From the NCBI GenBank assembly GCA_963826885.1, contig CAWGYL010000002.1, positions 129,756 through 193,755 of the forward strand: 64,000 nt of DNA, in the 5' to 3' direction. Shown piece after piece: positions 3,532 through 43,570 of the stretch (its first letter is position 1; each line of letters opens with the position of its first letter). The notes beneath the pieces are model-generated. The model worked only from the letters and a program-made list of their open reading frames with translations, was not told the DNA's origin and ran no database searches. This stretch comes from Nitrospirota bacterium (GTDB lineage: Bacteria; Nitrospirota; UBA9217). The position numbers were made by a program, and so were the translations under genes.

Positions 3532-3990
3532 TTACATGTGGTGCTCATGGCCCATGGGCATTTCGCTTGCCCCCTGAAGGGTAATTGGTAGTTCCTTCAC
3601 TCCCGTTTTCTCGAAGACCAGCGTCACGTTGAATTTCGAACCTACCGTCATTGTCATAGGCATGTCCTGGATCATGATATGGCTGCCGCCCATCTTTAAT
3701 TCCAGATTGCTTTTCGCGGGGACTTCTATCGTGTTCATATTTACCATGCGTTCACCTTGCATGACATGGAACGAAGCTTTTGCTCCCGGTATGTCAGTCT
3801 TTACTTCCTTGAGAACATCCGATCCACCTTGATTCCTAATATTCATGGTCACCATAGCTTCTCCCATGATAGCAGGAGACAATTCGGCATTGACCCCGTC
3901 AATGCTGATCTGCGGCGGACCGCTCTGGCATGAAGCAAGGATCATGGTGGTTACGAACACGGATATTACCAATAGCTTTGATTCCCTCAT
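3532..3990 (-). CDS. Lipoprotein, copper chaperone PCu(A)C-like (DUF461-like), with a Met/His-rich C-terminus
   Basis: Lipoprotein signal (ILASC) in a ~150-aa protein. Spaced Met/His motifs (HVMQGERMVNM...HIMIQDMPMTM...MPMGHEHHM) resemble the H/M copper-binding motifs of PCuAC. A TlpA-like redoxin is encoded two genes away. Confidence 0.5.
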   Translation of the reverse strand: MRESKLLVISVFVTTMILASCQSGPPQISIDGVNAELSPAIMGEAMVTMNIRNQGGSDVLKEVKTDIPGAKASFHVMQGERMVNMNTIEVPAKSNLELKMGGSHIMIQDMPMTMTVGSKFNVTLVFEKTGVKELPITLQGASEMPMGHEHHM

Positions 3991-4110
3991 TATTCCAAGT
4001 GATTTTATGATAGCCTCCTTCAGAAGTCGCCAGTACTGTCATTTTGAGTAACCTTGTCTACAGAAATAAAAGTTGACTGTAAACATTCAGCGGCCCTAGT
4101 TGCGCAGTCT

Positions 4111-5178
4111 TCAGAATGTATAACGCACTCCTAAGGAGGCAGTGTAATGCGGCGCTAGTTGTACTCCATTAAGATCCTGATAAATGGGCACTTGAACGAA
4201 ACCGTATATCGCAACCTGCTGACTGACAGACACGGTGATGCCAGGGCTGATATACAACAATGTTCCTCCGGTATTAACTTCATCCGCATTATCTCCTTCA
4301 TCATGCACAACGTATCGGTAGTTAAGCTGAAGCAAGGGGGAAAGATTAGAAAAACCCGCGTACAGTAAACCCAGGGTAAGGTTGAGTCCCTCACCCGGCT
4401 TGTATTGATCTCTTGAGTCCAGCGCTCTTTGATAGAGCGCCTGGGCGAAGTAGCTCACATTCATGCTTAGTCCATCGGTATAATATGCGCCGACTATGGC
4501 ATCAGTAGTGCCTGTCCCGGGTTGAAGACCACGATCAATAGGGACCGGGCCTGGAGCGGTCGGGTCAGTCGACGTCCCGGTATCTGTGTAACTGCCGGTC
4601 GGCAGCTTGAGACCGAAAAGAATACCAACATTGTGCCTTGGTGACAAACCCTGGTAACGACCCAATACCTTTATATCACCGATACTTGAAGTATGTGAGT
4701 TGTACTGCCCTCCTCCGGGCCCTGGGGTGTACCCATCCGATGCGGTTCCGAGTGTGCTATGGTTTCGATTGATCCATGGTAATTGAACATTCACTCCCCA
4801 ATCGCTGCCAGTGCTATAGTCTATTCCCAGCGTATAATAGTTGTTCACCGTATATTTCTCGATTTCCTCGGTGCCACCTGTTTGGGGATCCGGAAGTTTG
4901 CTGGCGGCTACAGGATCAATTGTTTTCGTCCCGCTCCGCAGCTGATCCTGATCAATAAAATCCCAACGAAGATCCATTTTTAGTCCTGGTGTGCAAGAGA
5001 GCTGCTCGTTTTCCCAATCGGAACTCAATGTGCAGCCACAACTTGCACAGGCCCTTGCATCTTCTGAAAATAATAGCAAGGTGCTTGCAACCATAATGAA
5101 CGCGCCTACGCTGTTAAACAATATTCGCGTAAATTTCTTCTGTCTAACTTGCTGGGCGAAATATCTTTTTACTCGCAT
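4111..5178 (-). CDS. Outer-membrane beta-barrel protein with an N-terminal Cys-rich motif (CASCGC)
   Basis: Signal peptide, alternating amphipathic beta-strand pattern, and a C-terminal ...GVRYTF aromatic end typical of outer-membrane beta-barrels. A Gly/Thr/Pro-rich loop region is present. The CxSCGC motif just after the signal peptide is reminiscent of the CXXC motif in MtrB/PioB-type porins. Confidence 0.5.
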   Translation of the reverse strand: MRVKRYFAQQVRQKKFTRILFNSVGAFIMVASTLLLFSEDARACASCGCTLSSDWENEQLSCTPGLKMDLRWDFIDQDQLRSGTKTIDPVAASKLPDPQTGGTEEIEKYTVNNYYTLGIDYSTGSDWGVNVQLPWINRNHSTLGTASDGYTPGPGGGQYNSHTSSIGDIKVLGRYQGLSPRHNVGILFGLKLPTGSYTDTGTSTDPTAPGPVPIDRGLQPGTGTTDAIVGAYYTDGLSMNVSYFAQALYQRALDSRDQYKPGEGLNLTLGLLYAGFSNLSPLLQLNYRYVVHDEGDNADEVNTGGTLLYISPGITVSVSQQVAIYGFVQVPIYQDLNGVQLAPHYTASLGVRYTF

Positions 5179-5201
5179 GGTGAAGTCTCCTCTTCAAGTA
5201 G

Positions 5202-5693
5202 TTACTGTTGTTTCAACAACTCAGCAATTTGTTTTTCATACATCGGGAGAAATTCCTTGCCGAACCCCATTTGCACATATCGGATAACTCCATCTTTACC
5301 AATGATGAATGCGGTCGGCAAAGTTCTAAAGTTATATCCTCTTCTGATGATGCCCTTTTTGTCGATAAGGACCGTAAACGTAACCGGGACCTTCTGGAGA
5401 AATTCAGTTACAAGCTTTTCGGAAGAATCGATATCTATTCCGATTATTTCGAGCCCCTCATTGCTATATTTTTTATAGAGTGCGTCGAGTGCAGGAAGTT
5501 CTTCCCGGCAAGGATCGCACCAGGGCGCCCAGAAGTCCAGGAACACCACCTTGCCCCTGAACTGCTTCAAGGTGACTACTTTACCGTTCACATCTACGAG
5601 ACTGAAGTCAGGCGCCGAAGTTCCAACCTGACTGGCATTCACAAAAACAGGTAGGGTGAGCGCAAGCAATAGTGCTATTATGATGATTTTCAT
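5202..5693 (-). CDS. TlpA/ResA-like periplasmic thiol:disulfide oxidoreductase (thioredoxin fold)
   Basis: Signal peptide MKIIIIALLLALTLPVFVNA followed by the WAPWCDPC thioredoxin-like active site within an AhpC/TSA-redoxin-like fold. The ORF track starts at 5741; the internal Met at 5693 is the more likely start. Confidence 0.75.
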   Translation of the reverse strand: MKIIIIALLLALTLPVFVNASQVGTSAPDFSLVDVNGKVVTLKQFRGKVVFLDFWAPWCDPCREELPALDALYKKYSNEGLEIIGIDIDSSEKLVTEFLQKVPVTFTVLIDKKGIIRRGYNFRTLPTAFIIGKDGVIRYVQMGFGKEFLPMYEKQIAELLKQQ

Positions 5694-6016
5694 TGACTGA
5701 TCTCCCGCCATGTATTCAAAATGCATCGCTGCGCGCAGCATAAAAATAAGCTTTTGTAAACTTGCTCAAATTTAGTGTTGATCTTAAACCGCATATCCGG
5801 CTGTTCTCCAGGAACTCATAAAAACACTCCACTCCGGAAATATCGCACCTCGTAAATGGATGATGGATTAAACATTCCCGAAGTGGAGCCAAGCTTTAAA
5901 GGGGAGGATAGCCTATGAGAACTATCCTCGGAGATACCATGCAAACGCATGCGTATTTGTGTGCCTTCCTGCTGTAAGGCAACAAGCTGACTCAAAAACC
6001 TCGGCTGCGTTACGGA

Positions 6017-6301
6017 TTAGGCTTTTGGGGGGCGTTCGTCTTGAAAGGCAGTTATGGTAGGTTTTATGAGAGGATTTATAATTTTAGAGGTTTCTTGAAG
6101 AACCAGAGGAAAAGGATAACAAGGGCACTCCTGAATAAAGGGCATGCTTCCCCCTGACGACAGGGCTGGAGTCGTTGAATGACATATGTCTAGAGTGCCG
6201 ATCATTGTATGTGCGTCGTGGCTGCACGTGAGAGAGAGGGAAGGCGGAATGGCGATGGTGAGAGCAATAGCTAGAAGCACTATGAGAGCTTGCCATTTCA
6301 T
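6017..6301 (-). CDS. Small secreted Cys-rich hypothetical protein
   Basis: Signal peptide MKWQALIVLLAIALTIAIPP followed by 6 Cys in about 70 aa. No recognisable family. Confidence 0.3.
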   Translation of the reverse strand: MKWQALIVLLAIALTIAIPPSLSLTCSHDAHTMIGTLDICHSTTPALSSGGSMPFIQECPCYPFPLVLQETSKIINPLIKPTITAFQDERPPKA

Positions 6302-6565
6302 GAAATTATCTTAAAGTCAAAAGTGCATAATGTCAACATAAAGTTACAATTTTAGCTGGTTATTGAAGAACAACATTATTGATTTACAAGCATGAATTAG
6401 GGCATGAAACCCTAGCCGGGATTCATCCCATTGATTCTTTTTCACCGGGATATACACCTCTCGGGAGGCAACACTGTAACGCTTGACAATAACAGCCAGA
6501 TATTCCCGTTTTGATCGCGCACTCACGGGAACGCACTCTCGTTTGGGAGTGTTAGTTATAGTAAC

Positions 6566-7156
6566 ATGAATTATGAGTCAATGATCTATTTCAATGTTTA
6601 CTTGGGTAAATTCTCTCGGTCAATTTGTCTTGACAGGGGGATACACGGAATTTATCATGGTTTCATGATCTATCCTGGATTATTGCAAACCGTTGCAAAG
6701 AGGATCACCCTGTCCAACGTGATGGGGGGCCTCGCATTCCTGCTGGTCGCAAGCCTGATGCTGTTCATCCTGTCTGACTGTTCAAAACAGGTTTCCTATC
6801 CCTCCCCAGTACAGATCGGCTCCAATATCGTCATCGATATGTCAAGCCTGGAGCTTGAGGTTCCCAAATTCTACACGTACCAGTTTCAGGACAAAAAGGT
6901 CAATTTTTTCGTTATCAAAAAGGAGGACACGCCCCTTTCCTTTCTTGACGCCTGCTCAAGCTGTTATCCCCATAAGCAGGGATACCGCTGCGAAGACAAC
7001 GCGGTTATCTGCCGTTACTGCAACGTCAGGTTGCCCATCAGTAAGCTCGAAAAAGGTATCGGGAGCTGTTATCCGATCAAAATTGAGGGCAAAATGGAGA
7101 ACGGCAAGTATATGATTGCGGTGGACACCTTGGAAAAGGCGGCGGATAAGTTTTGA
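6566..7156 (+). CDS. Membrane-anchored protein with a C-terminal 4-Cys (CxxC...CxxC) domain (DUF2318-like, attribution uncertain)
   Basis: TM segment GGLAFLLVASLMLFIL followed by FLDACSSCYPHKQGY...VICRYCNV. The true start is probably an internal Met near 6674 or 6722. Confidence 0.35.
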   Translation: MNYESMIYFNVYLGKFSRSICLDRGIHGIYHGFMIYPGLLQTVAKRITLSNVMGGLAFLLVASLMLFILSDCSKQVSYPSPVQIGSNIVIDMSSLELEVPKFYTYQFQDKKVNFFVIKKEDTPLSFLDACSSCYPHKQGYRCEDNAVICRYCNVRLPISKLEKGIGSCYPIKIEGKMENGKYMIAVDTLEKAADKF

Positions 7157-9798: not shown

Positions 9799-9949
9799 GC
9801 TGAAATGAGCTTATGCCTATGACCGTTATAAGGCGGTGAATTTCCTCGGTCATAGCGAGATGGATAAGAAATAAAATGCGTGTCGGATGTAAAAGGAATG
9901 CATTGTGCTTCGAAATCAACGTTGACTCGGTCGACACAGGAGGTTGAAC

Positions 9950-12900
9950 GTGACAACAGCAAATAAAACAGCATGCATCTTATGTTTTACCCTTGCTCTC
10001 ATTGTGTTTCAGACAAACCTGTATGGTTCAGAGGAAAAACCTGGGCAATCCCTTCCAGTCTACAGTCTCTCTGTTTCATTTGACTTGAAAAGTAATCTTT
10101 TGAGAGGCAGAGCGGCAATTACGCTGCCCAAAGCTGCTGATATGACAGTTTCTCCTGGTAATCTCAGGATTATATCAGTCACACTGAACGGATTGCCTGT
10201 GGATTACAGAACAAAGGACAATCTCTTCAAGGTTACCGGTACTGGGATACTCGAAATAGCGTACGAGGGGACCTTCAGGGGAGAACCAGGAAGCAATGAA
10301 AATCTTGAGAGTGCAGGCATGGTCTCAGCCGGGATGGTGAGCGAGGAAGGCATCTCACTCAACGGCGACTGGTATCCAGCAATCAACGGACTTGCCTATT
10401 ATAAGCTCACTGCTCTTGTTCCGAACAATTTCATTGCCGTATCGGAGGCGGATGAAATTGATGCGAGGGATGCCGCTTCGGGTAAAGAGTATTCTTTTGT
10501 TTTTCCTCATCCTTTAACCGGGATAGACTTTGTTGCGGGCAACTACCGCGAAGTCAAGGACACTGTCGACGGTATAGGCATTTATGCATACTTCTTTCCC
10601 GCGGATGTTTCCCTTGCAGCCAACTATATTGAACACACAAAGAAATATCTCAGGATGTATAACGAGCTCTTCGTCCCCTACCCGTACAAAAGATTCTCTG
10701 TTGTAGAAAACATCCCGCCTACAGGCCTTTCCATGCCCACCTTCACCCTCCTGGGGCGGGACATCGTCCGCCTCCCTTTTATTCTTGAAACCTCCCTGGG
10801 CCATGAGATCACCCATCAATGGTTCGGGAATTATGTGTACGCCGACTTTAAGAAGGGTAATTGGCTTGAAGCGGTCACGAGCTATCTCTCCGACCATCTC
10901 TATGAGGAACTGAAGGGCAAAGGATGGGAGTACAGAAAAAATATTCTCATCAATTTCCAGAGCTATGTCACCCCTGACAAGGATTTCCCCCTCAGAGATT
11001 TCACCGAGAGGACCGGCTTCGCCTCCATGGCGATCGGCTATGGTAAAGGGGCAATGCTCTTTCATATGCTCGAGAACCTGGTCGGAAGAGACATATTCTA
11101 TAGATCGTTACGGAGACTTATCGAGGACAATAAATTTAAACAAGCCTCGTGGGCCGATGTAGAGACTTCATTTGAGCGAGAATCAGGCAAAGACCTCGGA
11201 TGGTTTTTTACCCAGTGGCTCAACCGTAAGGGAGTGCCCTCCTTCGAAGTCCGGTACCCTGGTGCTATTATTTTAAAGGGAATCACGACCGCTTCATTCG
11301 AGTTTGTACAGAAGGGAGAGCCCTACAGAGTTGAATTGCCCGCGAAAGTTATTACTGAAAAGGGTGAAGTGAAACAGGTGCTGGCTTTGGAAAAAGAAAG
11401 GCAGTATTTTGATATTGCTGCAAAAGAGAACCCTACGGATTTAATCTTTGATTATGACTACGATATAATGAGGACGCTTGCAGACAATGAGTTTCCTCCT
11501 GTTATCGCACGGCTGCTTGGGGATGAAAAAAAGATTATCGTTTATCCTGAAAAAGAAATGGGAAAATACGCCGGATTATTAGCAATTTTCAAAGGAGAAG
11601 GTTTTAGTGCGAAAGAACAGCTTGAGGTGAATGACAAGGATATCCAGTCCTCCTCGCTCCTTATTCTGGGTTCTGAAAGCCCTGTACTTAAAAGACTGTT
11701 CGGAGCGGCCGGGGAAAGGAGCACAGGCTTTCTGCTTATCGTACGAAATAACCCCTTGAATACTTCAAAGGTTGTGGCCTATGCCCACGGAAATTCGAAG
11801 GAAGAAGTAGACCTCGCTGTAGACAAGATATTCCATTATGGGAAGTATTCGGTCCTGCGCTTTGAAAAAGGGGAAAATGTGGCAAAGGAAATTAGCAAGT
11901 CAGATCGCGGCATGGTATTCAATCTTCAGGCTTCGGTAGAGGGTATCGAGCCCGATAAATCTCTCACGCTCGATGAAATAATCGATGCTGTCAGCGATAA
12001 GCCTATTGTCCTCATCGGGGAACGACACACCAATTATGAGGACCATAAGGTGGAGCTTGCGGTTATCGCGGGTCTCCTTAAGAAAGGGAAGAAAATCGCT
12101 ATCGGGATGGAAATGTTCCAGAGGCCTTTCCAGAAGGCAATCGATGAGTATCTCGTCGGGACCATAGATGAAAGGGAATTTTTGCGAAAGACGGAATATT
12201 TCAAGAGATGGGGGTACGACTACAATAATTACCGGGAGATCATAGAGTTCGCCAAGGCGAAGGGGATCCCCCTTGTCGCGTTGAACCAGCGGTCCGAGAT
12301 CGTGGACACGGTGGCCAAAGGAGGTCTCGACGCTTTAACCCAAGAGGAAAGAAAAGAGCTCCCTCAGGAGATGGATATGTCCGATGAATCATATAAAAAG
12401 CGGTTGAGGGAGGTCTATGAAGACCACCCTGACCATATTCCATTCGAGAACTTTTATCAATCGCAGATCATTTGGGATGAGACCATGGCGCACTCTGCAG
12501 CCCGACTCCTGGAGGAGCGGCCTGACCACCATATTGTCGTGCTGGCCGGAGTTGAACATATTATGTACGGTTCGGGAATCCCAAACAGGGTTCACCGGCT
12601 TACTGGCAGAAACTATGTCACGATTATAAACGGTACCTTCGACAGGGACGTTGGCACCTATGTACTGTTTCCCAAGTCCCTCAATCCCCCTTTTACGGCT
12701 AAACTAGGGGTGATCATCCGGGAATCAGCAGGCATGGTGCAAGTCACTGATTTTTCTCCTGATAGCGTTGCATTGAAGTCAGGCCTCAACAAGGGGGACA
12801 TGATTACCTCTGTAGACGGCTGGAAGATACAGACGATAAGCGATATAAAGATCGCCCTTTTCGATAAGGAACCGGGCCAAACGGTAAACGTGAAAGTGAT

Positions 12901-12955
12901 AAGAAAAAGATTTCTGCTCGGCTCGAGGGAACTCGAATTTAACCTCTCTTTGTAA
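9950..12955 (+). CDS. Secreted multidomain protein: M1-family zinc metallopeptidase domain, TIKI/TraB/ChaN-like domain and a C-terminal PDZ domain
   Basis: Signal peptide, then HEITHQWFGN...(18 aa)...E and NWLEAVTSY, which give the M1 HExxH-x18-E gluzincin signature. The middle region IVLIGERHTNYEDHKVELAVIAGLLKKGKKIAIGMEMFQRP...HIVVLAGVEHIMYG resembles ChaN/TIKI (GExH) domains. The C-terminus GVIIRESAGMVQV...GLNKGDMITSVDGWKI is a PDZ domain. The ORF track starts at a TTG at 9944; the GTG at 9950 has better RBS spacing (aggagg). Confidence 0.75.
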   Translation: MTTANKTACILCFTLALIVFQTNLYGSEEKPGQSLPVYSLSVSFDLKSNLLRGRAAITLPKAADMTVSPGNLRIISVTLNGLPVDYRTKDNLFKVTGTGILEIAYEGTFRGEPGSNENLESAGMVSAGMVSEEGISLNGDWYPAINGLAYYKLTALVPNNFIAVSEADEIDARDAASGKEYSFVFPHPLTGIDFVAGNYREVKDTVDGIGIYAYFFPADVSLAANYIEHTKKYLRMYNELFVPYPYKRFSVVENIPPTGLSMPTFTLLGRDIVRLPFILETSLGHEITHQWFGNYVYADFKKGNWLEAVTSYLSDHLYEELKGKGWEYRKNILINFQSYVTPDKDFPLRDFTERTGFASMAIGYGKGAMLFHMLENLVGRDIFYRSLRRLIEDNKFKQASWADVETSFERESGKDLGWFFTQWLNRKGVPSFEVRYPGAIILKGITTASFEFVQKGEPYRVELPAKVITEKGEVKQVLALEKERQYFDIAAKENPTDLIFDYDYDIMRTLADNEFPPVIARLLGDEKKIIVYPEKEMGKYAGLLAIFKGEGFSAKEQLEVNDKDIQSSSLLILGSESPVLKRLFGAAGERSTGFLLIVRNNPLNTSKVVAYAHGNSKEEVDLAVDKIFHYGKYSVLRFEKGENVAKEISKSDRGMVFNLQASVEGIEPDKSLTLDEIIDAVSDKPIVLIGERHTNYEDHKVELAVIAGLLKKGKKIAIGMEMFQRPFQKAIDEYLVGTIDEREFLRKTEYFKRWGYDYNNYREIIEFAKAKGIPLVALNQRSEIVDTVAKGGLDALTQEERKELPQEMDMSDESYKKRLREVYEDHPDHIPFENFYQSQIIWDETMAHSAARLLEERPDHHIVVLAGVEHIMYGSGIPNRVHRLTGRNYVTIINGTFDRDVGTYVLFPKSLNPPFTAKLGVIIRESAGMVQVTDFSPDSVALKSGLNKGDMITSVDGWKIQTISDIKIALFDKEPGQTVNVKVIRKRFLLGSRELEFNLSL

Positions 12956-13044: not shown

Positions 13045-13797
13045 TTACTTTGACCTACCCTGAGACAATTTGTTAAGGGAATTATGCAGATCCTGCAGTT
13101 CAGATATGATGGTGTCGAGATCGAATTTGTGCCAATCAAGCACTGCGGAATGCAGGGAAGACTGGGCATCGCGCAGGGCTTTGCCTCTTTCGGTGCCATC
13201 GACAGGATGATAAAGCTTCACTTTTGCATCGAGGAGGTCATTGCTTTCCCTCAGTAAAAGCAATACGGCCTTCGCTGTTTGCGGCACATAGGGGAAGACG
13301 CCCATCCGTGCATTGTGGCACCGCTCACACACGGCCGCGACGGTCTCGGGTGTTGGAATACTGGTGACCATCGACCCATGACATGTTACGCATTCGGGGC
13401 CCTTTCCCTCCGATTCAAGCCTCTTGTAATGCAGACTCTGGGTAAATTTATAGAACTCCGCCCCGTGGCACTTGCCGCAGGTTGACGGGATGTTCTTGAA
13501 GTACACCATGCTTCGAGCATCGCCCGAGCCGAAAACACCCCTATGAGCCTCCTTTTGCCCGGAAGCGTGGGGATCGCCGCCATGGCAATTGTCGCAGGTT
13601 ACTCCATGCTTCTCGTGTACCGATCCCTTCCAACTGTGGGACTTTGCACCTACGAAACTGCTGCCCAGAAGCTGGGAATGGCAAGCGACGCAGGAATTCC
13701 CTGTTTTATTTTCATCCGCACCATTCGCGGACGCGGCAAACAGGAATGCGCCGCACGCGAGAAGGGCGCAAACAAGAACCTGGTCAATCTTTGACAT
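13045..13797 (-). CDS. Pentaheme c-type cytochrome
   Basis: Five CxxCH motifs (CVACH, CDNCH, CGKCH, CVTCH, CERCH) after a signal peptide. This is the last gene of the Rieske/cyt b operon. The Met at 13797 is the likely start; the ORF track extends to 13866 and would overlap the cyt b gene. Confidence 0.7.
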   Translation of the reverse strand: MSKIDQVLVCALLACGAFLFAASANGADENKTGNSCVACHSQLLGSSFVGAKSHSWKGSVHEKHGVTCDNCHGGDPHASGQKEAHRGVFGSGDARSMVYFKNIPSTCGKCHGAEFYKFTQSLHYKRLESEGKGPECVTCHGSMVTSIPTPETVAAVCERCHNARMGVFPYVPQTAKAVLLLLRESNDLLDAKVKLYHPVDGTERGKALRDAQSSLHSAVLDWHKFDLDTIISELQDLHNSLNKLSQGRSK

Positions 13798-15037
13798 TAC
13801 CGCCTCTCTTTCTGTTGTACCAGCGCAGAAGCGTGTAGCTGATACTCCACGCCAACGCTGTTGCAAGGATTGCTGCGACCATCATCGCCTTCGCCGTGAT
13901 ATGGAGCACGTCGATGTACCCAGCAACGACCATCATGCAGAGGAAAACGATCCCCCCAATGCCTAATGAGGTCATGAAGGGCCTGTGGAGCGGATTTTCC
14001 ATATAGTGCTTCGGATCTTTTGACCGGTCGAGGAACGGGATCAATGCATACACAACGAATGTGAACGCGGGAAAGATGACGCCGCCAATGGTCTCGGGCG
14101 TGATCTTGCCTCCCAGGAAAGAAAATGACAGGTCACCCGGAACCAGTTTCAGGAAACCATACACAACGAGGAAATACCAGTCAGGTCTCATCACGGGTGT
14201 TCCTGGCGACGGCGGGCCATACGCTTCTATTGGGTTCAAGGGGATATACGTCGCCATCATCACGACTACGAACAGCAGAAACAAGAAAAACGACAGGCTG
14301 ATGACGGCCTGTTCAGGCCAGATCGGGATGCCGATGAGCCTCCTCCCCCCCTGTGCCTCCTTTCGATTTCTGTTAGACCGGGGCTCCGTGTGTTTCTGCT
14401 TGACCAGAATGAGCATATGCAGGCCGATGAGGCCGGCCAGTACTGTTGGGATCAGCATGACATGCATGAAGAAGAAGCGGGGGACTGTCCCATCCGAAGG
14501 GAAGTCGCCTGCAAAGAGAAGTCTCGATATCCAATCTCCAACCCACGGCACCGACTTTGCCATATAGTAGGCAATGGACGTAGCGGTCACCGAGAACTGG
14601 CTATAGGGTAGCAAATAGCCGGTGAATGCCGCGACCATGGCCATACCCCACAAGCTGAGCCCCACGAGCCAGTTGATCTCCCGCGGCTTTTGGTAGGACG
14701 CGGTAAAGTAGATCCTCAGGAGATGCGCGAGGATGGCAGCGATCATGATCATTGCCGACCAGTGGTGGATGCGTCTGAAAACCAGGCCCATGGGGAGCAG
14801 GTCTAATCTTACCACACTCGCATAGGCTGCCGGGACCATCGCCCCGAAGAGGGAAACCATTGTAGTCGAAGGCTCATAGAAAAATCCGAGGAAGACGCCA
14901 GTCGCGACAAGGGTAATGAAGGAGAACAACGCCGTTTCTCCGAGCAGGAACGTGGGGTGGGTCGGGAATGTCTTGCTCAGGAACTTCTCCTTGAACTTTC
15001 TGAGTTCCAGCCTTTCATCGAACCATTTGAAAACCAT
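13784..15037 (-). CDS. Cytochrome b subunit of a Rieske/cyt b (bc-type) complex, with fused b N-terminal and C-terminal parts
   Basis: 417 aa with about 8-9 TM helices and conserved His pairs in helices (RIHHWSA...HLLR; HMLILVKQKHT), matching cytochrome b/b6-PetD architecture. It lies directly downstream of the Rieske gene. Confidence 0.85.
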   Translation of the reverse strand: MVFKWFDERLELRKFKEKFLSKTFPTHPTFLLGETALFSFITLVATGVFLGFFYEPSTTMVSLFGAMVPAAYASVVRLDLLPMGLVFRRIHHWSAMIMIAAILAHLLRIYFTASYQKPREINWLVGLSLWGMAMVAAFTGYLLPYSQFSVTATSIAYYMAKSVPWVGDWISRLLFAGDFPSDGTVPRFFFMHVMLIPTVLAGLIGLHMLILVKQKHTEPRSNRNRKEAQGGRRLIGIPIWPEQAVISLSFFLFLLFVVVMMATYIPLNPIEAYGPPSPGTPVMRPDWYFLVVYGFLKLVPGDLSFSFLGGKITPETIGGVIFPAFTFVVYALIPFLDRSKDPKHYMENPLHRPFMTSLGIGGIVFLCMMVVAGYIDVLHITAKAMMVAAILATALAWSISYTLLRWYNRKRGGNVKD

Positions 15038-15055
15038 GGCAGTGCCCTCGCCTCA

Positions 15056-15670
15056 CTATACCTGCGGCCCGATTGGTCCGTTGAAATCGCTCGTAAAGGC
15101 AAGCGTTCCGTCCTGCATCACCTTCACGCCAATTTGTGCGAGCGGGATCGGTGCAGGCCCGCCCATAACCTTCGCCCCCTGAGCTGGATTGAATATGCTG
15201 TTGTGGCAGTAGCATTCCGTGAATGATGCGGTGGGCGATTCTTGGTTTGCCATCCAGGAGACAGTGCAGCCGAGATGGGTGCAAATAGCGCTGTAGGCCA
15301 CAAACCCCTGGTCCGTCAGCGAGATGTCAGTGGGTGGCATGAATGCCTTCTCCTCCAGTTTGATCAGCTGGACGAGATTCGCGGGGTTCGATGACTTGCC
15401 CGTGGGATAGGCAAGCACGGCGTCGCCCGCCTTCATCGATGAAGCCGTGATGGGAGCCCCCGCGTTGCCTCCCTGAGCATACACAAGCCCGTCACCCGGC
15501 TTTATGGTCGCTGCATAGCCTCCGCCCTTCTTTTCGGGAGCCAGCACTTTGAGTAGTGTAAAAAGAGACCCGAAGGCGCCTGCGATGGATGCAAGGAGCA
15601 TCCCGAGGGTGAACCTCCTCCGGGTGATGCCTTTCTTGCTGCCCTCGCTCCCCGCGTTCCCGTCTACCAT
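15056..15670 (-). CDS. Rieske [2Fe-2S] iron-sulfur protein with a Tat signal
   Basis: Twin-arginine motif RRRFTLG. CTHLGC...CYCHNS is the CxH...CxxH Rieske cluster-binding box pair. Confidence 0.85.
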   Translation of the reverse strand: MVDGNAGSEGSKKGITRRRFTLGMLLASIAGAFGSLFTLLKVLAPEKKGGGYAATIKPGDGLVYAQGGNAGAPITASSMKAGDAVLAYPTGKSSNPANLVQLIKLEEKAFMPPTDISLTDQGFVAYSAICTHLGCTVSWMANQESPTASFTECYCHNSIFNPAQGAKVMGGPAPIPLAQIGVKVMQDGTLAFTSDFNGPIGPQV

Positions 15671-15927
15671 AGCAGCTCCTCCTCGCGGTCCTCCGATACC
15701 TCCCTGAAGGGAACAAAATAGCGCGCAAAGAGAACGATCTCAATGCCTGCGATCAGGAACTCGAAGGCGAGCAGTGTGCCCCAGAGGTAGTCACTTCCCT
15801 GGCCGGATATCAGGAAATAGGTGAACGCGGTGCCTGCAACGAGAAGCAGGATTGAAAGGACCAGCACCGCTATCATGGCGGCCTTTGGATATGCAGGCCT
15901 CTTCTCCTGTATGATCTCAAAGCTCAT
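15664..15927 (-). CDS. Small two-TM membrane protein, putative accessory subunit of the complex
   Basis: Starting at MSFEIIQ it encodes two hydrophobic helices. Its start overlaps the stop of the upstream cytochrome gene, suggesting translational coupling. Function unknown. Confidence 0.4.
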   Translation of the reverse strand: MSFEIIQEKRPAYPKAAMIAVLVLSILLLVAGTAFTYFLISGQGSDYLWGTLLAFEFLIAGIEIVLFARYFVPFREVSEDREEELLW

Positions 15928-15928
15928 A

Positions 15929-16660
15929 TTATCCCCTCCGTTCCAGTGCGAGGTACACGAGATAGCCGATGCCGAACAAGACAAGCACCGCGCCGAATGC
16001 GATAAATCCTATCTGGAAGGCATCGAGTTCCTCGGGAAATTCGGGTATGAACGGCGGTTTCTTGCCGACTGTTTTCGCCTGGGCGATCTTGATCCGTATT
16101 CCCGATAGCGCATTCACCGTTGATTCGGTCACATCCATCGGATCGATCTGATCGAACCCCGCCGTATCCTTGTGGCAACTTTCACAAACCTTGGGGACCT
16201 CTGGTATGGCATTTCGGTGTGCTTGGTGGCAAGTAACGCAGGATGGCCCGCCTTTATTTTCAAGATAGGCCTTGCCCATTATGCTCTTTGCGTACCGGTC
16301 GACGGAAGTATTATGGCACTGGCTGCACAGGGCAAACAGTTTTTTGCCGGATGGCTTACCTATAAAGCCCTGGGATATGGACATTGCTTGTGACATTTTT
16401 TCCCCAAATTCATTACCGGTGAAATGTTTGATATTCTGCACGTCCACGTCCGGATTTCCCCCGTGACAAAGATCGCACGTTATGCGATTTCGCTGATGGA
16501 TTGAACCTTGCCATTCCTTTACTGGTCTGCCGAGCGCAGCATCCATAAATTCGTGGCACAGTACGCAAGCCGAAGGTTTCAGCTCAGCGCGCCCGCTCGC
16601 CCCGAACAGTAGGAAAGCTGCTGCACAGCACAGCGCAAATGCACGGCTTGTTATCTTCAT
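15929..16660 (-). CDS. Membrane-anchored pentaheme c-type cytochrome
   Basis: Signal peptide, then five CxxCH motifs (CVLCH, CDLCH, CSQCH, CVTCH, CESCH) and a C-terminal TM helix (FIAFGAVLVLFGIGYLVYLAL). The likely start is MKITSRAF at 16660. Confidence 0.7.
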   Translation of the reverse strand: MKITSRAFALCCAAAFLLFGASGRAELKPSACVLCHEFMDAALGRPVKEWQGSIHQRNRITCDLCHGGNPDVDVQNIKHFTGNEFGEKMSQAMSISQGFIGKPSGKKLFALCSQCHNTSVDRYAKSIMGKAYLENKGGPSCVTCHQAHRNAIPEVPKVCESCHKDTAGFDQIDPMDVTESTVNALSGIRIKIAQAKTVGKKPPFIPEFPEELDAFQIGFIAFGAVLVLFGIGYLVYLALERRG

Positions 16661-17066
16661 ACGTTCGCTTCCCGAATTAGTATTGCATCTTTTTCCCCGA
16701 TTGAAAATCACCTCGCCCTGCAGCTGTCTTCAACCAAAGTGGGCAGGTCGCACAAGCAAGGATGCTATCCATGAAGTCAAGATAACGAATGAGAGGGCCG
16801 TGGCAAAAAGATGGCGACGTCAGGTGCTCTTGCCGTCCACTAATCAACGCACACTGCTTCTTGCTACCATCCAAGTAGTTAAGAACTCCGGTTTTGATCT
16901 CCCCTATCGTTTTCTCCGACAGTGTGCCGAACTTTGCCTGAACAACAAATTTTGCGAACCCCTGCACCTGCGCTATGCGCTGTTACCTCTCCTTCTCCAA
17001 ATCGTCGGCTTCCCTTCCAGCCCCGACAACTCGACCGCAGAGCACTTCTCGATGCTTGAAGGTGTA

Positions 17067-19478
17067 CTATTCCCATCCCTCCTGCACAATCTTGCTTGAT
17101 TGGACATGTGGGAATTTTTCCGTAAGTTTATCGATCGGAAGCTTCTCGTCTCCAGCCCGCATGAAATGGAGCAGTGATACCGATGCCCAGTAATCGTTGT
17201 AGTACGCCGTATTTTTCAGCTGTATCGGCACTCCTTTTTTGTTCACCCGGTGGCAAGCCCCGCAGGTGACTGGCCCTGCATACTTTCCGTCGGGACTGAA
17301 TTGAAGAGCCTGCTGATGAGTCGTTCTATCCACGGTGCCGTCCTCTCCTTCAAAGCGCACCGGATAGAGTCCATGGATCGACTCGTGGCAGGACTGACAG
17401 GCAATGTTCCCGTGCGCCTTTGAATACCGGTACAGCGAATACTTGTTTGGCTGGTCGATGGGAAAATATGCACCCCCTTCGCTCTCTACAAAAGGCGCGA
17501 GATGGCAGTCCGCGCAGTGCGGTTCCCCCGCCGCGAGCCACCAATCCTGGCCTGCCGAGGCCCCGCCATAAGGCACGGCATCGCCTTCCTGTGCGTTCCA
17601 GGGAAGCAGCTTCAACTTCCCTTCGCTGTCCTTCGTGGCCTTCACTATCGTTGCACCGGTATGTTTCCCGTAATACGCGTAAAGAGGGTTCCCTTCTGCG
17701 TTCACGATCGGATCGGCATAGTATTGTCTGAACTTTTTCTCGTCTCCGTTTGCCACCGTTTTGACGACCTCGGCAAGGGATTTATTCCTGAGAGAAGCCC
17801 CTTCCTGGGTAGCTACATTCTGCAGATCATCACTGTTGTACAGCTCATGTGCAAGCTGATTATGGCAATTAGAACAGTAGAGGCCCCTTTTTTCCTTGAT
17901 CGGCTTCCCGAGTTCGTCTTTCATGCTCACTTCATGGAGATACCATTTTCCGACGCTGTTCAGGAAGAAGGGCGGTTTTACGTTCGGGTTTGTGTGGGCA
18001 TCGCGGCGTAGGTAGCACCCGCCGCCCGCTGTACGTACGTCGGCGTCCGAAAAACGCGGGTTCCCTTCTGTATCTACTATAACATAGGGGTTTGCAGGCA
18101 AGTTGTTCATTTTCTCTGGCTGCCAATGCGTGGGATGGCATGCCTGACAGCTCTGCGTTCTACCTGCCATGTCGGGCATTGGGATAAACCCTGCGTGCGC
18201 TCCATGGATCGCAACGGACAGCGCCTTTGCTTTCACTGTTTTGTATCCCGTTGCTGTTGGCCGCGGGGATTGCAGATTGCCGGAAACGTTGTTACCGTGA
18301 CAATCGGAGCAGTACACGGGGCCTACAGATCCGAGACGGTTCGTGGATGCATCGGACCGGTAATCCTTGAGAAAACTAGTGCCGTAATGCTTGTCATGCA
18401 ATTCAAGAACGTTGATGGCCGCCGCCGACGACCGCGCCATGAATTCTGACATATCGGAATAGTTCTTTTTCCAGTAGACGTATTCCTTGTCAAATAGTGA
18501 CAGTCCTTGCTTCCGTGACAATTTCGCCGCTTTGCCTTCGTCCGAGTGACACACATAGCAGTTCGGAATATCGACCGGATTTGTACCGAAGAACTCGACC
18601 GGTTTTCCCCCGGCAAGGATTGGTTTACCATTCTTGTCCTGCAACCGGACCACGGAGTACTGATAGGGCTGAAAATCGAGATCTGATACGGTGCGGATGG
18701 TTCCTTTTCTCCTGCTGTCGTTGAACGCGGTCATGGGAAGTCCGAGCGCATCCCACAGATACGAGGCCGTAAGCGTCAATTGGATGTTCTTGACGTCGGG
18801 GATAAGAGAGTCGGTGAAAACCTTGTTGCTTCCCGTGCTGCCTGCGTAGGTCAGATCCCCTCCGGAGAGATTTTTCCCCGTCGGCCCGGAATCGATGGGG
18901 ACCTGGATCTGCTTCCCCACAAAGAGCCGTTGTGCCTCAGTCGCGTCTGGGGGGATCGTGCCTTCGAGGTCCTTGTAGATAAAAAGGTGGGTCCAGACGT
19001 AATTCGCCATGTTGTCGCCGGGATCATTGCTCCTGCCCGTTCCGTAGACGTCCTTGCTCACCTGCCAGTAGCGCATTTTGTTCCCTTCACTGTAGCTGTT
19101 GTCCCTGACTGAGTAGGAAAGCTTTATACCGTCGTCGGGGGATATCAGCCCCGGCAATCGGCCATGTTCTCCGGTTTTGACCGCCTGCGCCTGGATGCTG
19201 TTGTAGGGGGGAATCACGCAGCAGTAGGAAATATCAAACCCCACGCAGTGCATCCCAAGCTCATAATTAATGAAAATGGCATAGGGGTCTTTGGGGTCAT
19301 AGAGCGTCTCGCTTTTTCCTGCCCCGTCCTTGACCGTCACCTGCTGCTCGAGGCTATGTCCGAAAGGAGGGTTGGAGTTATACAGAGTCTTCGTCTGCGC
19401 GTCAGCAGCAGGATACCCTGCAGCCACAAGAGCCACAACCAGAAAAAAACCGGTCAAAATCACGAAGTATCGCTTCAT
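17067..19478 (-). CDS. Large secreted multiheme c-type cytochrome with at least 7 CxxCH motifs (803 aa)
   Basis: Signal peptide MKRYFVILTGFFLVVALVAAG. CxxCH motifs: CYVCH, CSDCH, CQACH, CSNCH, CADCH, CQSCH, CGACH. Strong RBS aaaggagg. It is the first gene of the cytochrome/Rieske/cyt b operon. Confidence 0.75.
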   Translation of the reverse strand: MKRYFVILTGFFLVVALVAAGYPAADAQTKTLYNSNPPFGHSLEQQVTVKDGAGKSETLYDPKDPYAIFINYELGMHCVGFDISYCCVIPPYNSIQAQAVKTGEHGRLPGLISPDDGIKLSYSVRDNSYSEGNKMRYWQVSKDVYGTGRSNDPGDNMANYVWTHLFIYKDLEGTIPPDATEAQRLFVGKQIQVPIDSGPTGKNLSGGDLTYAGSTGSNKVFTDSLIPDVKNIQLTLTASYLWDALGLPMTAFNDSRRKGTIRTVSDLDFQPYQYSVVRLQDKNGKPILAGGKPVEFFGTNPVDIPNCYVCHSDEGKAAKLSRKQGLSLFDKEYVYWKKNYSDMSEFMARSSAAAINVLELHDKHYGTSFLKDYRSDASTNRLGSVGPVYCSDCHGNNVSGNLQSPRPTATGYKTVKAKALSVAIHGAHAGFIPMPDMAGRTQSCQACHPTHWQPEKMNNLPANPYVIVDTEGNPRFSDADVRTAGGGCYLRRDAHTNPNVKPPFFLNSVGKWYLHEVSMKDELGKPIKEKRGLYCSNCHNQLAHELYNSDDLQNVATQEGASLRNKSLAEVVKTVANGDEKKFRQYYADPIVNAEGNPLYAYYGKHTGATIVKATKDSEGKLKLLPWNAQEGDAVPYGGASAGQDWWLAAGEPHCADCHLAPFVESEGGAYFPIDQPNKYSLYRYSKAHGNIACQSCHESIHGLYPVRFEGEDGTVDRTTHQQALQFSPDGKYAGPVTCGACHRVNKKGVPIQLKNTAYYNDYWASVSLLHFMRAGDEKLPIDKLTEKFPHVQSSKIVQEGWE

Positions 19479-20251
19479 GATGTTCCTCCTTTTTCGGAAA
19501 TGCGTTTAGCGAATCTCCAGCAATCACTCCGGTTTCTGGATTTCCCAAGACATGCTTTCATAACTCATGCCGGACATAGCAGCTATCCAGTGCAATATAA
19601 TTGAGATTCAACGTTGCAATATCCTGAACGGCAGACATCTCAGGTGAGGTCGGCTTAAAGGATGAGACTTCCTTGAAATATCCTTTCATTGTTCGCAGCT
19701 TCAACACGCATTTTATCAGCTTGGTTAAAATGCCCGTCAAATATACGATTAAACTACCCAGAAAGTCCCGAGATAGAATGTTTTATAATAAATTGAACAT
19801 TTTATAAATAAGATCGCGGTTTGGAAAGGAAAAGAATGACGAATACTGAACAACTACCAAAAACATAGCTCGCGGCATGGATGATGTCAAGTGAACAGCA
19901 GTAAGTTACCTGACTATTGCAGCACGATTCCATCAGCGGTTTCCAGAAACAAGTTGAAGCACTAATCTGTCAGATTTTTTTCTGCATGAGTCCTTGTCCG
20001 TTTTCCGCTCATTGCCACTTTCATCATAATGAAAGTAACCATTTTGGGGAATCCTACTGTCTCAATTCCCGAAGTTATCAGCTACGCAAGATGTAACCAC
20101 AAAAAACAGCACAGGCTTGGCGGTTATTACTCATCTGATCGCGTCTGTAATATTATTTCTCATGCCGAGGTCATCGTTTTTTTCATCGTGGGTAGCAACC
20201 GCACCCACTATCTCTCAACGGCCCCTTCCAGCAGTTCCGCCCTTGATCCTA

Positions 20252-30801: not shown

Positions 30802-31275
30802 ATGATCAGTCTTAAAGTCAATGGCAAAAATTATCAAGTAGATGTACTACCGGATGCGCCGCTGCTCTGGGTCATCCGGGAAGAGTTGAAACTTACGGGC
30901 ACGAAGTTCGGGTGCGGGATAGCACAGTGCGGCGCCTGCACCGTGCACATTGACGGCAAGGCGGAACGCTCCTGCCAGATTCCGGTAAAGGACGCCCAAG
31001 GCAAGAAGATCACGACCATCGAGGCACTCGGCGCTGAACGGGTGGGCAAGGCGGTCCAGCAGGCGTGGACCGCGGAGGACGTGCCCCAGTGCGGTTACTG
31101 TCAGTCCGGCCAGATCATGCAGGCTGCGGCGCTCCTCATGCACAACCCCAAACCTTTGGACTCTGACATCGACAACGATCTCTCAGGCAACCTCTGCCGG
31201 TGCGGCACATACCAGCGCATCCGCAAGGCCGTGCACCGTGCGGCCAGTATGCTGGCAAAAGGAGACAAACCATGA
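30802..31275 (+). CDS. (2Fe-2S)-binding small subunit of a molybdenum hydroxylase (IorA/CoxS-like)
   Basis: [13 protein letters not shown] (plant-type 2Fe-2S Cys cluster) plus CGYCQSGQ...CRCGTY (second cluster). RBS ggaggtga. Confidence 0.8.
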
Positions 31276-33437
31276 GCAAGATCATCAAGATAACCCGCCG
31301 TGATTTTTTAAAGACAGGGGCATTGGTCGGAGGAGGTCTGATACTCGGTTTTCATATGCCGGCGAGTGAGTCTTTCAGTGAAACACCGACGCAGCCAGCT
31401 ACACCCATTGTGCCGAACGCTTTCATCCGCATCGGTACTGACGACACCGTAACCATCATCGTTAACCATTCTGAAATGGGTCAGGGCGTGTACACATCGC
31501 TTCCAATGCTCATCGCCGAAGAACTTGAATGTGATTGGCGCAAAGTGCTAGTGGAGTCGGCTCCCGTGGATCCTGTGTACAATCACACCGCCTACGGCAT
31601 GCAGATGACCGGCGGTAGTAGCAGCGTCTGGAGCGAGTATGACCGGCTGCGTATGGTGGGTGCGGCGGCCCGGGAGATGCTGATCGCCGCAGCGGCCAAC
31701 CTGTGGAAGGTGAGTAAGACAAGCTGCCGCGCCGAGAAGGGAAAAGTAATCCACAGGAGCGGCAAATCCCTCACCTACGGGAAGCTCGCGGACAGGGCTG
31801 ATACCTTGCCCGTACCGCAGGATGTGACGCTCAAGGATCCCTCGAAGTTTAAGATCATCGGCAAACCGACGAAGCGCCTGGACACGCCGGAAAAGGTAAA
31901 CGGCAGGGCTATGTTCGGCCTGGATGTGAGCGTACCCGGCATGTTGACAGCTCTGATAGCACGTCCCCCGGTGTTCGGCGCAAAAGTAGTGAGCGTTAAC
32001 GCCGATAAGGCCAAGATTGTCTCCGGAGTTCAGGATGTGGTGCAGGTACCCTCAGGAGTGGCGGTGATCGCTTCAGGCTTCTGGCCGGCGAAGAAAGGGC
32101 GGGACGCCCTTGAGATCGTCTGGGACGAAGGAGACGGCGCGACGTTCTCAACAGCGGGCATGCGTGATCAGTATATGAACCTGGCTCAAACCCCCGGGAC
32201 GGTCACACGCAAAGATGGCGACTCCGCAGATGCCCTGCCGAAGGCGGTGAAGCAGGTCAGCGCCGACTATGAAGTCCCCTACCTATCCCATGCAACAATG
32301 GAAACCTTGAACTGTCTGGTTGATCTGCGCGTCGACAGCTGTGAAATCTGGACCGGTACGCAATTCCAGACTGTTGATCGGAATGCCGCTGCACGAGTTG
32401 CGGGGCTCGAGCCTGAGAAGGTCAAAATTCACACGACGTTTCTCGGAGGCGGTTTCGGCCGCCGTGCGAACCCCCGATCCGATTTCGTCATCGAGGCGGT
32501 GCAGGTCGCGAAAGCGGTCGGGAAACCGGTCAAGGTGGTCTGGACCCGTGAGGACGACGTTGCAGGCGGCTACTACCGCCCGATGTGGTACGATCGGATC
32601 GCCGCGAGGCTCGATGCAGGCGGAAATCCGGTCGCCTGGCGGCATACGATCGTTGGACAGTCGATTCTGAGCGGGACGCCGTTTGAACAAATGCTCGTCA
32701 AGAACGGCGTGGATGGGACGTCGGTGGAAGGTGCCAAAGACATTCCTTACGGGATCCCGAACATTCTTGTCGACCTGCACAGCCCTGAGCTCGCGGTACC
32801 GGTGCTCTGGTGGCGCTCCGTCGGCCACTCTCATACCGCCTTTGTCGTCGAAAGCTTCGTGGACGAGTTGGCAAACGCGGCCGGCAAGGACCCCTATGAA
32901 CTGCGCCGCATGCTCCTCGCCGGGCACCCGCGCCACCTCGGCGTGCTGAACCTCGCCGCGCAAAAGGCGGGCTGGGAGATGCCGCTGCCGAAAGGCCGGG
33001 CGCGCGGTATCGCTGTGCATGAGTCATTCGGCAGCTACGTCGCGCAGGTGGCAGAGGTCTCGGTGAGCCCCGCAGGGCAGGCGCGCGTGCACAAGGTGGT
33101 GTGCGCCGTTGACTGCGGAAGATTCGTGAATCCCGACACCATCAAAGCGCAGATGGAGGGGGGGATCGTCTTTGGCCTTTCTGCCGCACTTTACGGTGCG
33201 ATCACTTTCAAGAACGGTCGGGTGGAGCAGAGCAATTTCAACGACTACCCCATCCTGCGTTTGAACGAAATGCCCGAGGTCGAGGTGCACATTGTGACAA
33301 GCACGGAAAAGCCAGGCGGCATCGGGGAGCCGGGTGTGCCGCCGATTGCGCCCGCCCTCTGTAATGCGCTCTTTACTTTGACCGGTAAGCGCATCCGCCA
33401 GCTGCCTATTCGGGTTGAAGAACTGAAAATGGTGTAA
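31273..33437 (+). CDS. Molybdopterin-binding large subunit of a xanthine-dehydrogenase-family enzyme (IorB-like), Tat-exported
   Basis: Starts with a Tat motif ([22 protein letters not shown]). About 720 aa typical of isoquinoline 1-oxidoreductase beta / aldehyde oxidase MoCo subunits. Its ATGA start overlaps the small subunit stop. The ORF-track start at 31200 is probably too far upstream. Confidence 0.8.
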
Positions 33438-43480: not shown

Positions 43481-43570
43481 TCTTTCCTCCATAAATCGGC
43501 AATCCGATAATATTTCATTCATTTTTAATAACCGAGAGATGACGTCTGGCCGTCGAGACACTACATAGTT

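Follow-up and report, generated by a model that had tools for sequence, protein, structure and literature searches.

Complexes in which a Rieske/cytochrome b core is partnered by multihaem cytochromes are already an established kind, though a poorly characterised one. They are thought to be early, low-potential forms of complex III, and to our knowledge almost none has been purified. The genome paper on Caldithrix abyssi discusses Rieske/cytochrome b with multihaem partners, citing Dibrova et al. 2013, and the Rieske/cytochrome b pair of the Nap cluster in that species, which lacks a monohaem c1, is a proposed donor to periplasmic multihaem cytochromes (PMC5317091). In anammox Kuenenia, R/b-1 to R/b-3 likewise bring a Rieske/cytochrome b core and multihaem cytochromes together in one cluster; their energetics are described as biochemically uncharacterised (PMC12954380). 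Here we describe a locus of this general kind in a 64,000-nt stretch of DNA, the window, from a Nitrospirota bacterium (lineage UBA9217; assembly GCA_963826885.1, contig CAWGYL010000002.1, positions 129,756 to 193,755). The locus encodes a Rieske protein, a cytochrome b, three multihaem c-type cytochromes and a small membrane protein. It likely consists of two adjoining modules: a five-gene cassette for a ten-haem analogue of complex III, and an independent gene for a periplasmic heptahaem cytochrome.

Six open reading frames (ORFs), all on the minus strand, make up the locus within 13045-19478, at the coordinates given by a sequence-only reading of the window. They are listed in their 5' to 3' order on that strand:

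17067-19478, minus strand: 803-aa cytochrome with an N-terminal signal peptide and 7 CxxCH motifs
15929-16711, minus strand: ORF of the first pentahaem cytochrome, with 5 CxxCH motifs and a C-terminal transmembrane (TM) helix; the likely ATG at 16660 gives 243 aa
15664-15927, minus strand: 87-aa protein with 2 TM helices
15056-15670, minus strand: Rieske protein, 204 aa, with RRRF, CTHLGC and CYCH motifs
13784-15037, minus strand: cytochrome b, 417 aa, with N- and C-terminal Pfam domains in one chain
13045-13866, minus strand: ORF of the second pentahaem cytochrome, with 5 CxxCH motifs; the likely start at 13797 gives 250 aa

The start codons picked here are those of the gene callers on identical public contigs. 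The ORF list, the translations and matches to Pfam and NCBIfam models (Rieske, cytochrome b and multihaem c-type families) bear out the sequence-only reading in its description of six co-directional genes with these motifs, and Pfam recognises the Rieske protein and both halves of cytochrome b. That reading also counted at least 17 haems. The three cytochromes hold 7 + 5 + 5 CxxCH motifs, and because a motif scan of the six translated proteins found no CxxxCH, CxxxxCH or CxxCK, the number of c-type haem sites is 17. All of these motifs are kept in homologues, and hence they are not chance occurrences. The further cofactors of the locus are two b-haems and one [2Fe-2S] cluster. The description of the genes as tightly spaced holds for the five cassette genes (13045-16660), with intergenic distances of +1, -7, +18 and -14 bp, but not for the 803-aa gene, which is 406 bp away from the first pentahaem gene. 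The overlaps, and gaps of no more than 18 bp, suggest translational coupling within the cassette.

What supports the division into two modules? The gene order of relatives points to the cassette being an autonomous, conserved unit that encodes a five-subunit Rieske/cytochrome b complex. We looked closely at six relatives carried on longer contigs (L010, L011, L012, L093, L094 and L095 in our numbering; Nitrospirota or Acidobacteria), and their cytochromes b are 79-93% identical to the window protein. The order of the five genes is the same in all six, with sizes of 243-274, 87, 203-205, 415-418 and 251-257 aa, while the flanks of the cassette are unrelated and none of the six has an 803-aa homologue beside it. 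In a 3.08-Mb contig of a metagenome-assembled genome, the cassette is found at 0.84 Mb and the 803-aa protein has an 89%-identical counterpart encoded at 1.95 Mb. Close relatives of cytochrome b number in the hundreds and are 410-426 aa long; the best 120 are 76-100% identical and, where the source names a host, come from Nitrospirota, Nitrospiraceae or Acidobacteria. The 87-aa protein is present at the same position in every cassette, with 67-83% identity, and is therefore a real gene. No reductase locus surrounds the cassette in any of seven contexts, and keyword and accession searches of the literature found no description of exactly such a cassette.

Some genes beside the cassette are also worth recording. 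An unusual 1003-aa fusion of peptidase M1, ChaN/Tiki haem-binding and PDZ domains (9944-12955, plus strand) converges on the end of the cassette in the window. The gene for this fusion also adjoins the cassette in L093, on the opposite side, which indicates a local inversion. In contig L010, a Cu,Zn superoxide dismutase (SOD) gene is found near the cassette.

The 803-aa gene, as judged from its neighbourhoods, is usually a stand-alone, independent module. One genome per species was scanned, yielding relatives in 241 species, and neighbourhoods were compared for the best 80 of these 241 species loci, all at least 60% identical. A window-type cassette is near the 803-aa homologue in 0 of the 80. 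The sequence-only reading had taken the six genes as a single unit with at least 17 haems. This proposal is contradicted by these 80 loci, by the six relatives of the cassette that lack the 803-aa gene, and by a gene remnant between the two modules, described below. The best 120 matches to the 803-aa protein are 63-89% identical. The best 80 loci represent six or more phylum-level lineages and include Nitrospirota, Aquificota (Persephonella, Hydrogenothermaceae), Campylobacterota (Sulfurimonas, Sulfurovum, Hydrogenimonas), Methylacidiphilaceae (M. fumariolicum SolV among them), Aminicenantes, Syntrophales, Geobacteraceae and others. A third homologue search, with a divergent profile, returned only 7 proteins. 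Source names for the family are “hypothetical,” “uncharacterized” or a generic cytochrome label, and literature searches by accession and keyword found no description of the family and no mention of the accessions.

There is no cross-phylum partner gene for the 803-aa family in these neighbourhoods: no neighbour family occurs in more than 8 of the 80 loci, by clustering and by a Pfam count of 142 adjacent genes, and the commonest neighbours are lineage-specific TPR and MFS genes. For example, the homologue in Persephonella is monocistronic, between secDF and pgi (the member from P. marina EX-H1 is C0QRM7 / WP_012675330.1). Five of the 80 loci (L016, L057, L064, L072 and L088) do have a different Rieske/cytochrome b pair, only distantly related (25-39% identity), at a distance of 2-8 kb; in both loci inspected closely (L016 and L064) it is on the opposite strand. 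In the three Aminicenantes loci (L057, L064 and L072), the nearby cytochrome b has a class I cytochrome c as its fusion partner, and a DUF488 gene separates one of these bc complexes from the 803-aa homologue. In the Nitrospirota locus L016, the gene after this cytochrome b encodes a 298-aa multihaem cytochrome. No plasmid copy of the 803-aa gene was found. In some Nitrospirota (L001/L024 and L020), the homologue is flanked by an IS110 transposase, HigB/HigA pairs and IS605 OrfB/TnpB. Mobile and selfish flanks of this sort fit the patchy spread of the family across phyla and its very high identity.

The junction between the two modules carries traces of how they came to be neighbours. Its features, and the best promoter-like site upstream of the 803-aa gene, are as follows:

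16661-16760, minus strand: native leader of the cassette, about 100 nt, recognised by local alignments to L010, L011 and L093
16755-17054, minus strand: remnant of an MmgE/PrpD-family gene (tblastn with the PrpD protein of L014: 43% identity, residues 11-128, E 1e-16)
16779-16806, minus strand: weak sigma-70-like site inside the PrpD remnant (TTGCCA-16-TATCTT, 9/12)
19862-19890, minus strand: promoter-like site upstream of the 803-aa gene (TTGACA-17-TATGTT, 10/12)

In L014, a 491-aa MmgE/PrpD gene (L014:5435-6910, Pfam) follows directly after the 803-aa homologue, and the remnant in the window has 73% nucleotide identity to L014. Similar PrpD debris follows the 803-aa gene copy of L013. The PrpD remnant and the short native leader thus indicate that the 803-aa gene came to lie beside the cassette recently, bringing along the stub of a former neighbour, and the adjacency in the window appears to be the product of this rearrangement. 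The same six-gene arrangement is present in three separate public assemblies (L006-L008); it is therefore real and not an assembly chimera. A 96-codon ORF at 16677-16967 (ORF96) was considered as a functional small gene and rejected in favour of the PrpD remnant, which it overlaps. The 406-bp gap has no Rfam match, and its folding is no better than that of shuffled sequence (z = +1.05).

How the cassette is transcribed in its new position bears on the relationship between the modules. In L093, a promoter-like site with 11/12 matches (5186-5213, TTGAAA-16-TATAAT) is located 165-190 nt ahead of the ATG, and the ~100 nt of leader retained in the window stop short of the relatives' promoter-like block. 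The site at 16779-16806, inside the remnant, is a possible substitute promoter for the cassette; promoter-like sites found here are no more numerous than in shuffled sequence. The 406-bp gap shows no terminator-like site, and transcription from the 803-aa gene may run on into the cassette. Terminator-like hits inside the genes equal the number expected from shuffling and were disregarded. The co-transcription of all six genes assumed by the sequence-only reading is thus favoured by the loss of the promoter block and by the gap without a terminator, and disfavoured by the weak promoter-like site in the remnant. The site at 19862-19890 is part of a 773-bp non-coding stretch, and close 803-aa homologues share no upstream motif apart from the ribosome-binding site.

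Cytochrome b combines b6-like and subunit-IV-like halves in one chain with 8 predicted TM helices (Cytochrom_B_N_2, E 1e-50; Cytochrom_B_C, E 1e-8). The b-haem ligands are one of H91/H92 together with H105, H192 and H207, which align with histidines of Corynebacterium glutamicum QcrB. The helix-D histidines H192 and H207 have the 14-residue separation of the b6 type, and there is no haem-ci cysteine (CxGG) in the protein; the position reads FLLGE at residue 30. The best solved relative is the actinobacterial QcrB 7q21_B (206 bits, E 1e-59, residues 9-404). Scores are ~115 bits against solved cytochrome b6 and at most 93 bits against proteobacterial and mitochondrial cytochromes b. The Rieske protein has a twin-arginine motif (RRRF at 17), a TM segment at 22-40, CTHLGC at 130 and CYCH at 153, matches the Pfam Rieske domain and has solved relatives in the PDB, the best of which is a Thermus thermophilus protein (E 1e-26). 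The Qo motif, PDWY, is at residues 285-288 of cytochrome b. Kao and Hunte found PDWY exclusively in organisms that oxidise menaquinol and whose Rieske proteins are of low or mid potential (PMC4122944). This motif, and the position of QcrB and the Thermus Rieske protein as nearest solved relatives, assign the pair to the menaquinol type, as far as sequence can tell.

The sequence-only reading correctly set the locus apart from complexes with a monohaem c partner: the c-type partners of this Rieske/cytochrome b pair are multihaem, and the cytochrome b reaches only about 93 bits against ordinary bc1 complexes. Its suggestion of kinship with anammox bacteria and the Geobacter clade did not hold up. 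The Rieske protein matches the Kuenenia structures 9rk3 and 9rk4 at E 6e-8 and 2e-6, compared with 1e-26 for Thermus, and the ExtP model (NF040969) gives 155 bits against a cut-off of 290, with a match confined to the N-terminal half. By these scores, the pair looks neither anammox-like nor Geobacter-like. Indeed, the NCBIfam models for QcrB, QcrA, PetC, ExtP and b6 all score the cassette proteins below their cut-offs (QcrB, 301 bits against 500; QcrA, 84.6 against 275; NF050120 / NF050121), and the complex therefore falls outside any named equivalog family.

How does the cassette compare with described complexes? It resembles actinobacterial QcrCAB (C. glutamicum, 7q21) in its fused, long cytochrome b with 14-residue spacing of the helix-D histidines, in its menaquinol-type Qo motif (PDWY in the cassette, PDVY in QcrB) and in having a c-type partner with more than one haem. 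It differs from QcrCAB in that QcrB is 120-140 residues longer, the Rieske protein has one TM anchor where QcrA has three, two separate pentahaem c3/c7-like proteins take the place of the dihaem class I cytochrome QcrC, and there is an extra 87-aa subunit. The Thermus operon fbcCXFB presumably encodes cytochrome c, a small membrane protein, the Rieske protein and cytochrome b in the same order as the cassette. The c subunit in Thermus is monohaem. The Thermus thermophilus menaquinol:cytochrome c reductase also provides the closest solved Rieske protein (1NYK, 3FOU), but in the cassette the c position belongs to a pentahaem gene, with another such gene after cytochrome b. Compared with the anammox clusters, the cassette lacks an NAD(P)-oxidoreductase-like or HAO-like subunit, its Rieske similarity is weak, and its cytochrome b is nearest to the actinobacterial type. 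Unlike the Caldithrix pair, the cassette is found outside reductase loci and carries two pentahaem subunits of its own. It departs from canonical bc1 in having no monohaem c1, PDWY in place of PEWY or PVWY, and 14- rather than 13-residue histidine spacing. It departs from b6f and b6c complexes in having one fused cytochrome b polypeptide, not a split b6 and subunit IV, and no haem-ci cysteine. On this comparison, the cassette is a distinct form, in which a menaquinol core of Thermus/actinobacterial type is joined by two paralogous pentahaem proteins and an 87-aa subunit.

With 34% identity (E 8e-22), the pentahaem proteins are paralogues of each other. The first carries a signal or anchor at its N-terminus and a TM helix (217-235) at its C-terminus. 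Across seven cassettes it has 2 invariant non-motif histidines and 3 invariant methionines; so few extra histidines, together with invariant methionines, suggest a mixture of bis-His and His/Met haems. We propose it as an analogue of cytochrome c1, suited to receive electrons from the Rieske cluster. In the second, an N-terminal signal or anchor is combined with a helical C-terminal tail, and no TM helix is predicted beyond the signal sequence. Five extra histidines are invariant in the seven cassettes, and its haems are probably all bis-His, which fits a low-spin bis-His wire or shuttle. PDB sequence searches with the pentahaem cytochromes gave marginal matches only. The 87-aa protein, in which no cofactor motif was found, is probably a small structural subunit; its Pfam match to DUF7318 is below the cut-off, and it was not assigned to that family.

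These features can be combined into a mechanism. The cassette would stand in for complex III in a menaquinone-using bacterium of the Nitrospirota type. Menaquinol would be oxidised at the PDWY-type Qo site. One electron would pass through the Tat-exported Rieske cluster to the membrane-anchored pentahaem protein, in the role of c1, then probably to the second pentahaem protein and on to periplasmic acceptors. The other would cross the membrane by way of haems bL and bH and arrive at the Qi site, and the resulting Q cycle would translocate protons and help to build up a proton-motive force. The two-TM, 87-aa protein would serve as a small structural subunit. We infer the Q cycle and the order of electrons among the c-haems, as we do haem ligation and any coupling between the modules. 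The second module (17067-19478) would be an independent cytochrome that may take electrons from the cassette in this organism. Its distribution indicates that the 803-aa protein is not a subunit of the conserved complex.

What kind of protein is the 803-aa cytochrome? Residues 1-27 are a Sec signal peptide. The N-terminal region that follows (~45-301) is beta-rich and haem-free and contains the motif GMHCVGFDISYCC, while all 7 CxxCH motifs belong to a helical domain (305-803). The protein is predicted to be a Sec-exported periplasmic heptahaem cytochrome. The seven CxxCH motifs are invariant in the family, even in members that are 35-45% identical. Seven more histidines (H361, H425, H428, H495, H689, H702 and H771) are also invariant, and there are therefore enough for seven bis-His haems. 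Between the haem motifs, R482, R492, D493 and N497 are conserved. In the N-terminal motif GMHCxGFDxSYCC, H77 is nearly invariant and the cysteines are gone from the most divergent members. An AlphaFold model built from a 70-sequence alignment that included divergent members reached a pLDDT of 85.8 and a pTM of 0.87; with 32 close homologues only, the model was unusable (pLDDT 46). No solved relative was found by PDB sequence and profile searches or by fold comparison of the model, in which the N-terminal region has Ig-like structural matches.

The 803-aa protein resembles NrfA, octahaem nitrite reductase (ONR), HAO/HDH, OTR and MccA in being periplasmic and strongly conserved, with many CxxCH motifs, and in having conserved Arg, Asp and His residues between them (R482, R492, D493 and H495). 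It differs from these catalytic cytochromes in lacking family-specific haem motifs and a fold match; the hallmarks of NrfA, ONR, HAO, OTR and MccA (CxxCK, CX15CH, a cross-link Tyr motif) were not found in it. CxxCH motifs number as many as 16 among the longer relatives (P0241, P0247, P0249 and P0395), the highest count being that of a protein of 1905 aa. Among divergent members, a class I cytochrome c is fused N-terminally in P0241 (E 2e-20) and C-terminally in P0247 (E 4e-15). In a Nitrospirota subclade, genes for a FixO-like cytochrome c, a 472-aa haem-copper oxidase, protoglobin-PsiE, CBS and HPP proteins follow the 803-aa gene on the same strand, with a FixI-like Cu-ATPase nearby, and the FixO-like/oxidase pair is intact in three of the loci and reduced to remnants in others:

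L018, L020-L023, L025, L029 and L036 (for example L020:12538-17081), same strand as the 803-aa homologue: oxidase-type synteny

In L014, which offers the closest intact neighbourhood of an 803-aa homologue, genes for PrpD, ComA (phosphosulfolactate synthase) and a qNOR-type NorB (L014:5435-10404) follow the homologue on the same strand. The qNOR gene in one locus, the FixO-like/haem-copper oxidase and HPP neighbours, and the class I cytochrome c fusions are the reasons to consider oxygen or a nitrogen oxide as substrate. These lineage-specific contexts are weak leads; they would fit periplasmic electron exchange with a cytochrome c chain, and the metabolism served might be that of oxygen or nitrogen oxides. 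We tentatively suggest, as a possibility short of even odds, that the 803-aa protein is a periplasmic multihaem oxidoreductase of a new class, with an unseen fold and a His/Cys site at GMHCxGFDxSYCC, which would take electrons from the cytochrome c chain, act on a small substrate and, in this organism, be wired to the ten-haem complex.

Other explanations of the locus place the 803-aa protein inside the system. The six genes could be one ancestral operon encoding a supercomplex with 17 c-haems, a quinol:multihaem-cytochrome conduit of the sort seen in anammox bacteria and metal reducers. Co-directional genes and a gap without a terminator-like site are what such an operon would show, and other lineages do pair Rieske/cytochrome b with multihaem cytochromes (PMC5317091). 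However, the cassette lacks the 803-aa gene in 6/6 related contigs, the 803-aa gene lacks the cassette in 80/80 loci of its family, the 406-bp gap holds a PrpD pseudogene remnant, the Rieske protein is only weakly similar to that of anammox bacteria, and ExtP scores below its cut-off. The comparative context largely refutes an ancestral operon, which we regard as very unlikely. A related idea is that the coupling was acquired: the rearrangement removed the native promoter of the cassette, which would now be co-transcribed from the promoter of the 803-aa gene, with the heptahaem protein as its dedicated periplasmic acceptor or terminal reductase. The promoter-like block of the relatives is indeed outside the retained 100 nt and the gap has no terminator, the class I cytochrome c fusions of P0241 and P0247 suggest exchange with a cytochrome c chain downstream of bc-type complexes, and Rieske/cytochrome b genes of some kind are no more than a few kb from the homologue in five other loci. 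Yet the adjacency is found in this population only, a weak promoter-like site is available inside the remnant, the intervening pseudogene resembles an accident rather than a design, and the closest homologue of the 803-aa gene is 1.1 Mb from the cassette in its own genome. We consider acquired coupling a doubtful explanation, but one to be taken seriously.

Two further proposals concern the route of the electrons. If the 803-aa protein were at the cell surface, the locus could connect quinol to minerals, or minerals to quinol. In favour of such extracellular electron transfer, the protein has weak Pfam matches to MtrC/MtrF domain II/IV (31.5 bits) and Ig-like matches in its beta-rich N-terminal region, and its distant relative P0395 has PKD, cadherin and Big domains typical of surface proteins. 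Nevertheless, there is no lipobox cysteine in the protein and no porin or outer-membrane cytochrome partner in the window. The only outer-membrane-related gene in the flanks, for an OmpA-C-like protein, is 773 bp upstream of the 803-aa gene, and the outer-membrane porin gene of porin-cytochrome conduits (MtrCAB/Pcc) is missing from the flanks. The family also occurs in Methylacidiphilum, Persephonella and Sulfurimonas, among which we know of no metal respirers, and for typical surface cytochromes an identity of 60% or more across phyla, as found in this family, would be unusually high. The extracellular acceptor entertained by the sequence-only reading thus finds no lipoprotein signal, porin or outer-membrane partner, the gene content gives no sign of a conduit at the locus, and we view this proposal as extremely improbable. 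The cassette could also run in reverse, with low-potential periplasmic multihaem donors reducing menaquinone through it in a lithotrophic uphill or confurcating pathway. The second pentahaem protein, seemingly all bis-His and so of a type that is typically low in potential, would suit this role, and reverse-acting bc complexes exist in acidophilic iron oxidisers (PMC4122944). Those complexes have APWY-type Qo motifs (PMC4122944), whereas the motif here is PDWY, and no lithotrophy genes are linked to the cassette in seven contexts. Reverse operation is therefore improbable.

The division into a complex III analogue and an independent cytochrome has points against it as well. With no terminator in the gap and the promoter block gone, the six genes may be one transcript, and functional selection could account for the cassette lying beside the 803-aa gene. 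The five loci with other Rieske/cytochrome b genes could hint at a recurrent functional link, or could be coincidence. The subunit composition is deduced from gene order alone, the haem ligands are assigned from no more than seven sequences, which are fairly alike, and the electron flow is drawn in a proposed direction.

Elsewhere in the window, a strong match to the 5' part of a group II intron is found at 2988-3276 on the minus strand (Rfam D1-D4-3, 147 bits; D1-D4-1, 67 bits). Neither a domain 5/6 match nor a reverse-transcriptase ORF was found for it, and the next ORF downstream on the same strand encodes an IS110-family transposase (1356-2663, minus strand); the intron looks truncated or interrupted. 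A gene cluster for copper and redox handling (3532-7156) encodes a PCuAC copper chaperone (3532-3990), an AhpC/TSA-thioredoxin/Sco-like protein (5202-5741) and, at 6566-7156, a membrane iron-sulfur protein like FtrD. Its content suggests that copper enzymes are matured, for example haem-copper oxidases or N2O reductase. A DUF2950 protein (42500-43561, minus strand, E 1e-110) and a xanthine/aldehyde oxidase family molybdopterin-binding subunit (31200-33437, plus strand) are unrelated to the Rieske/cytochrome b locus.

What are the implications of a two-module locus? The copper-chaperone genes of the window and the Cu,Zn-SOD gene of L010 suggest that hosts of the cassette meet oxygen or nitrogen oxides. 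The cassette is sharply defined, conserved and common in environmental Nitrospirota and Acidobacteria, making it a good target for structural and redox studies. The “17-haem operon” is the product of a rearrangement and not a conserved entity, which calls for caution in reading function from gene adjacency. The most novel element of the locus is the orphan heptahaem family, and it is represented in cultured species: Persephonella marina, Sulfurimonas species and Methylacidiphilum fumariolicum. If its substrate were found, the family could prove to be a missing enzyme of microaerobic or anaerobic respiration, or of detoxification.

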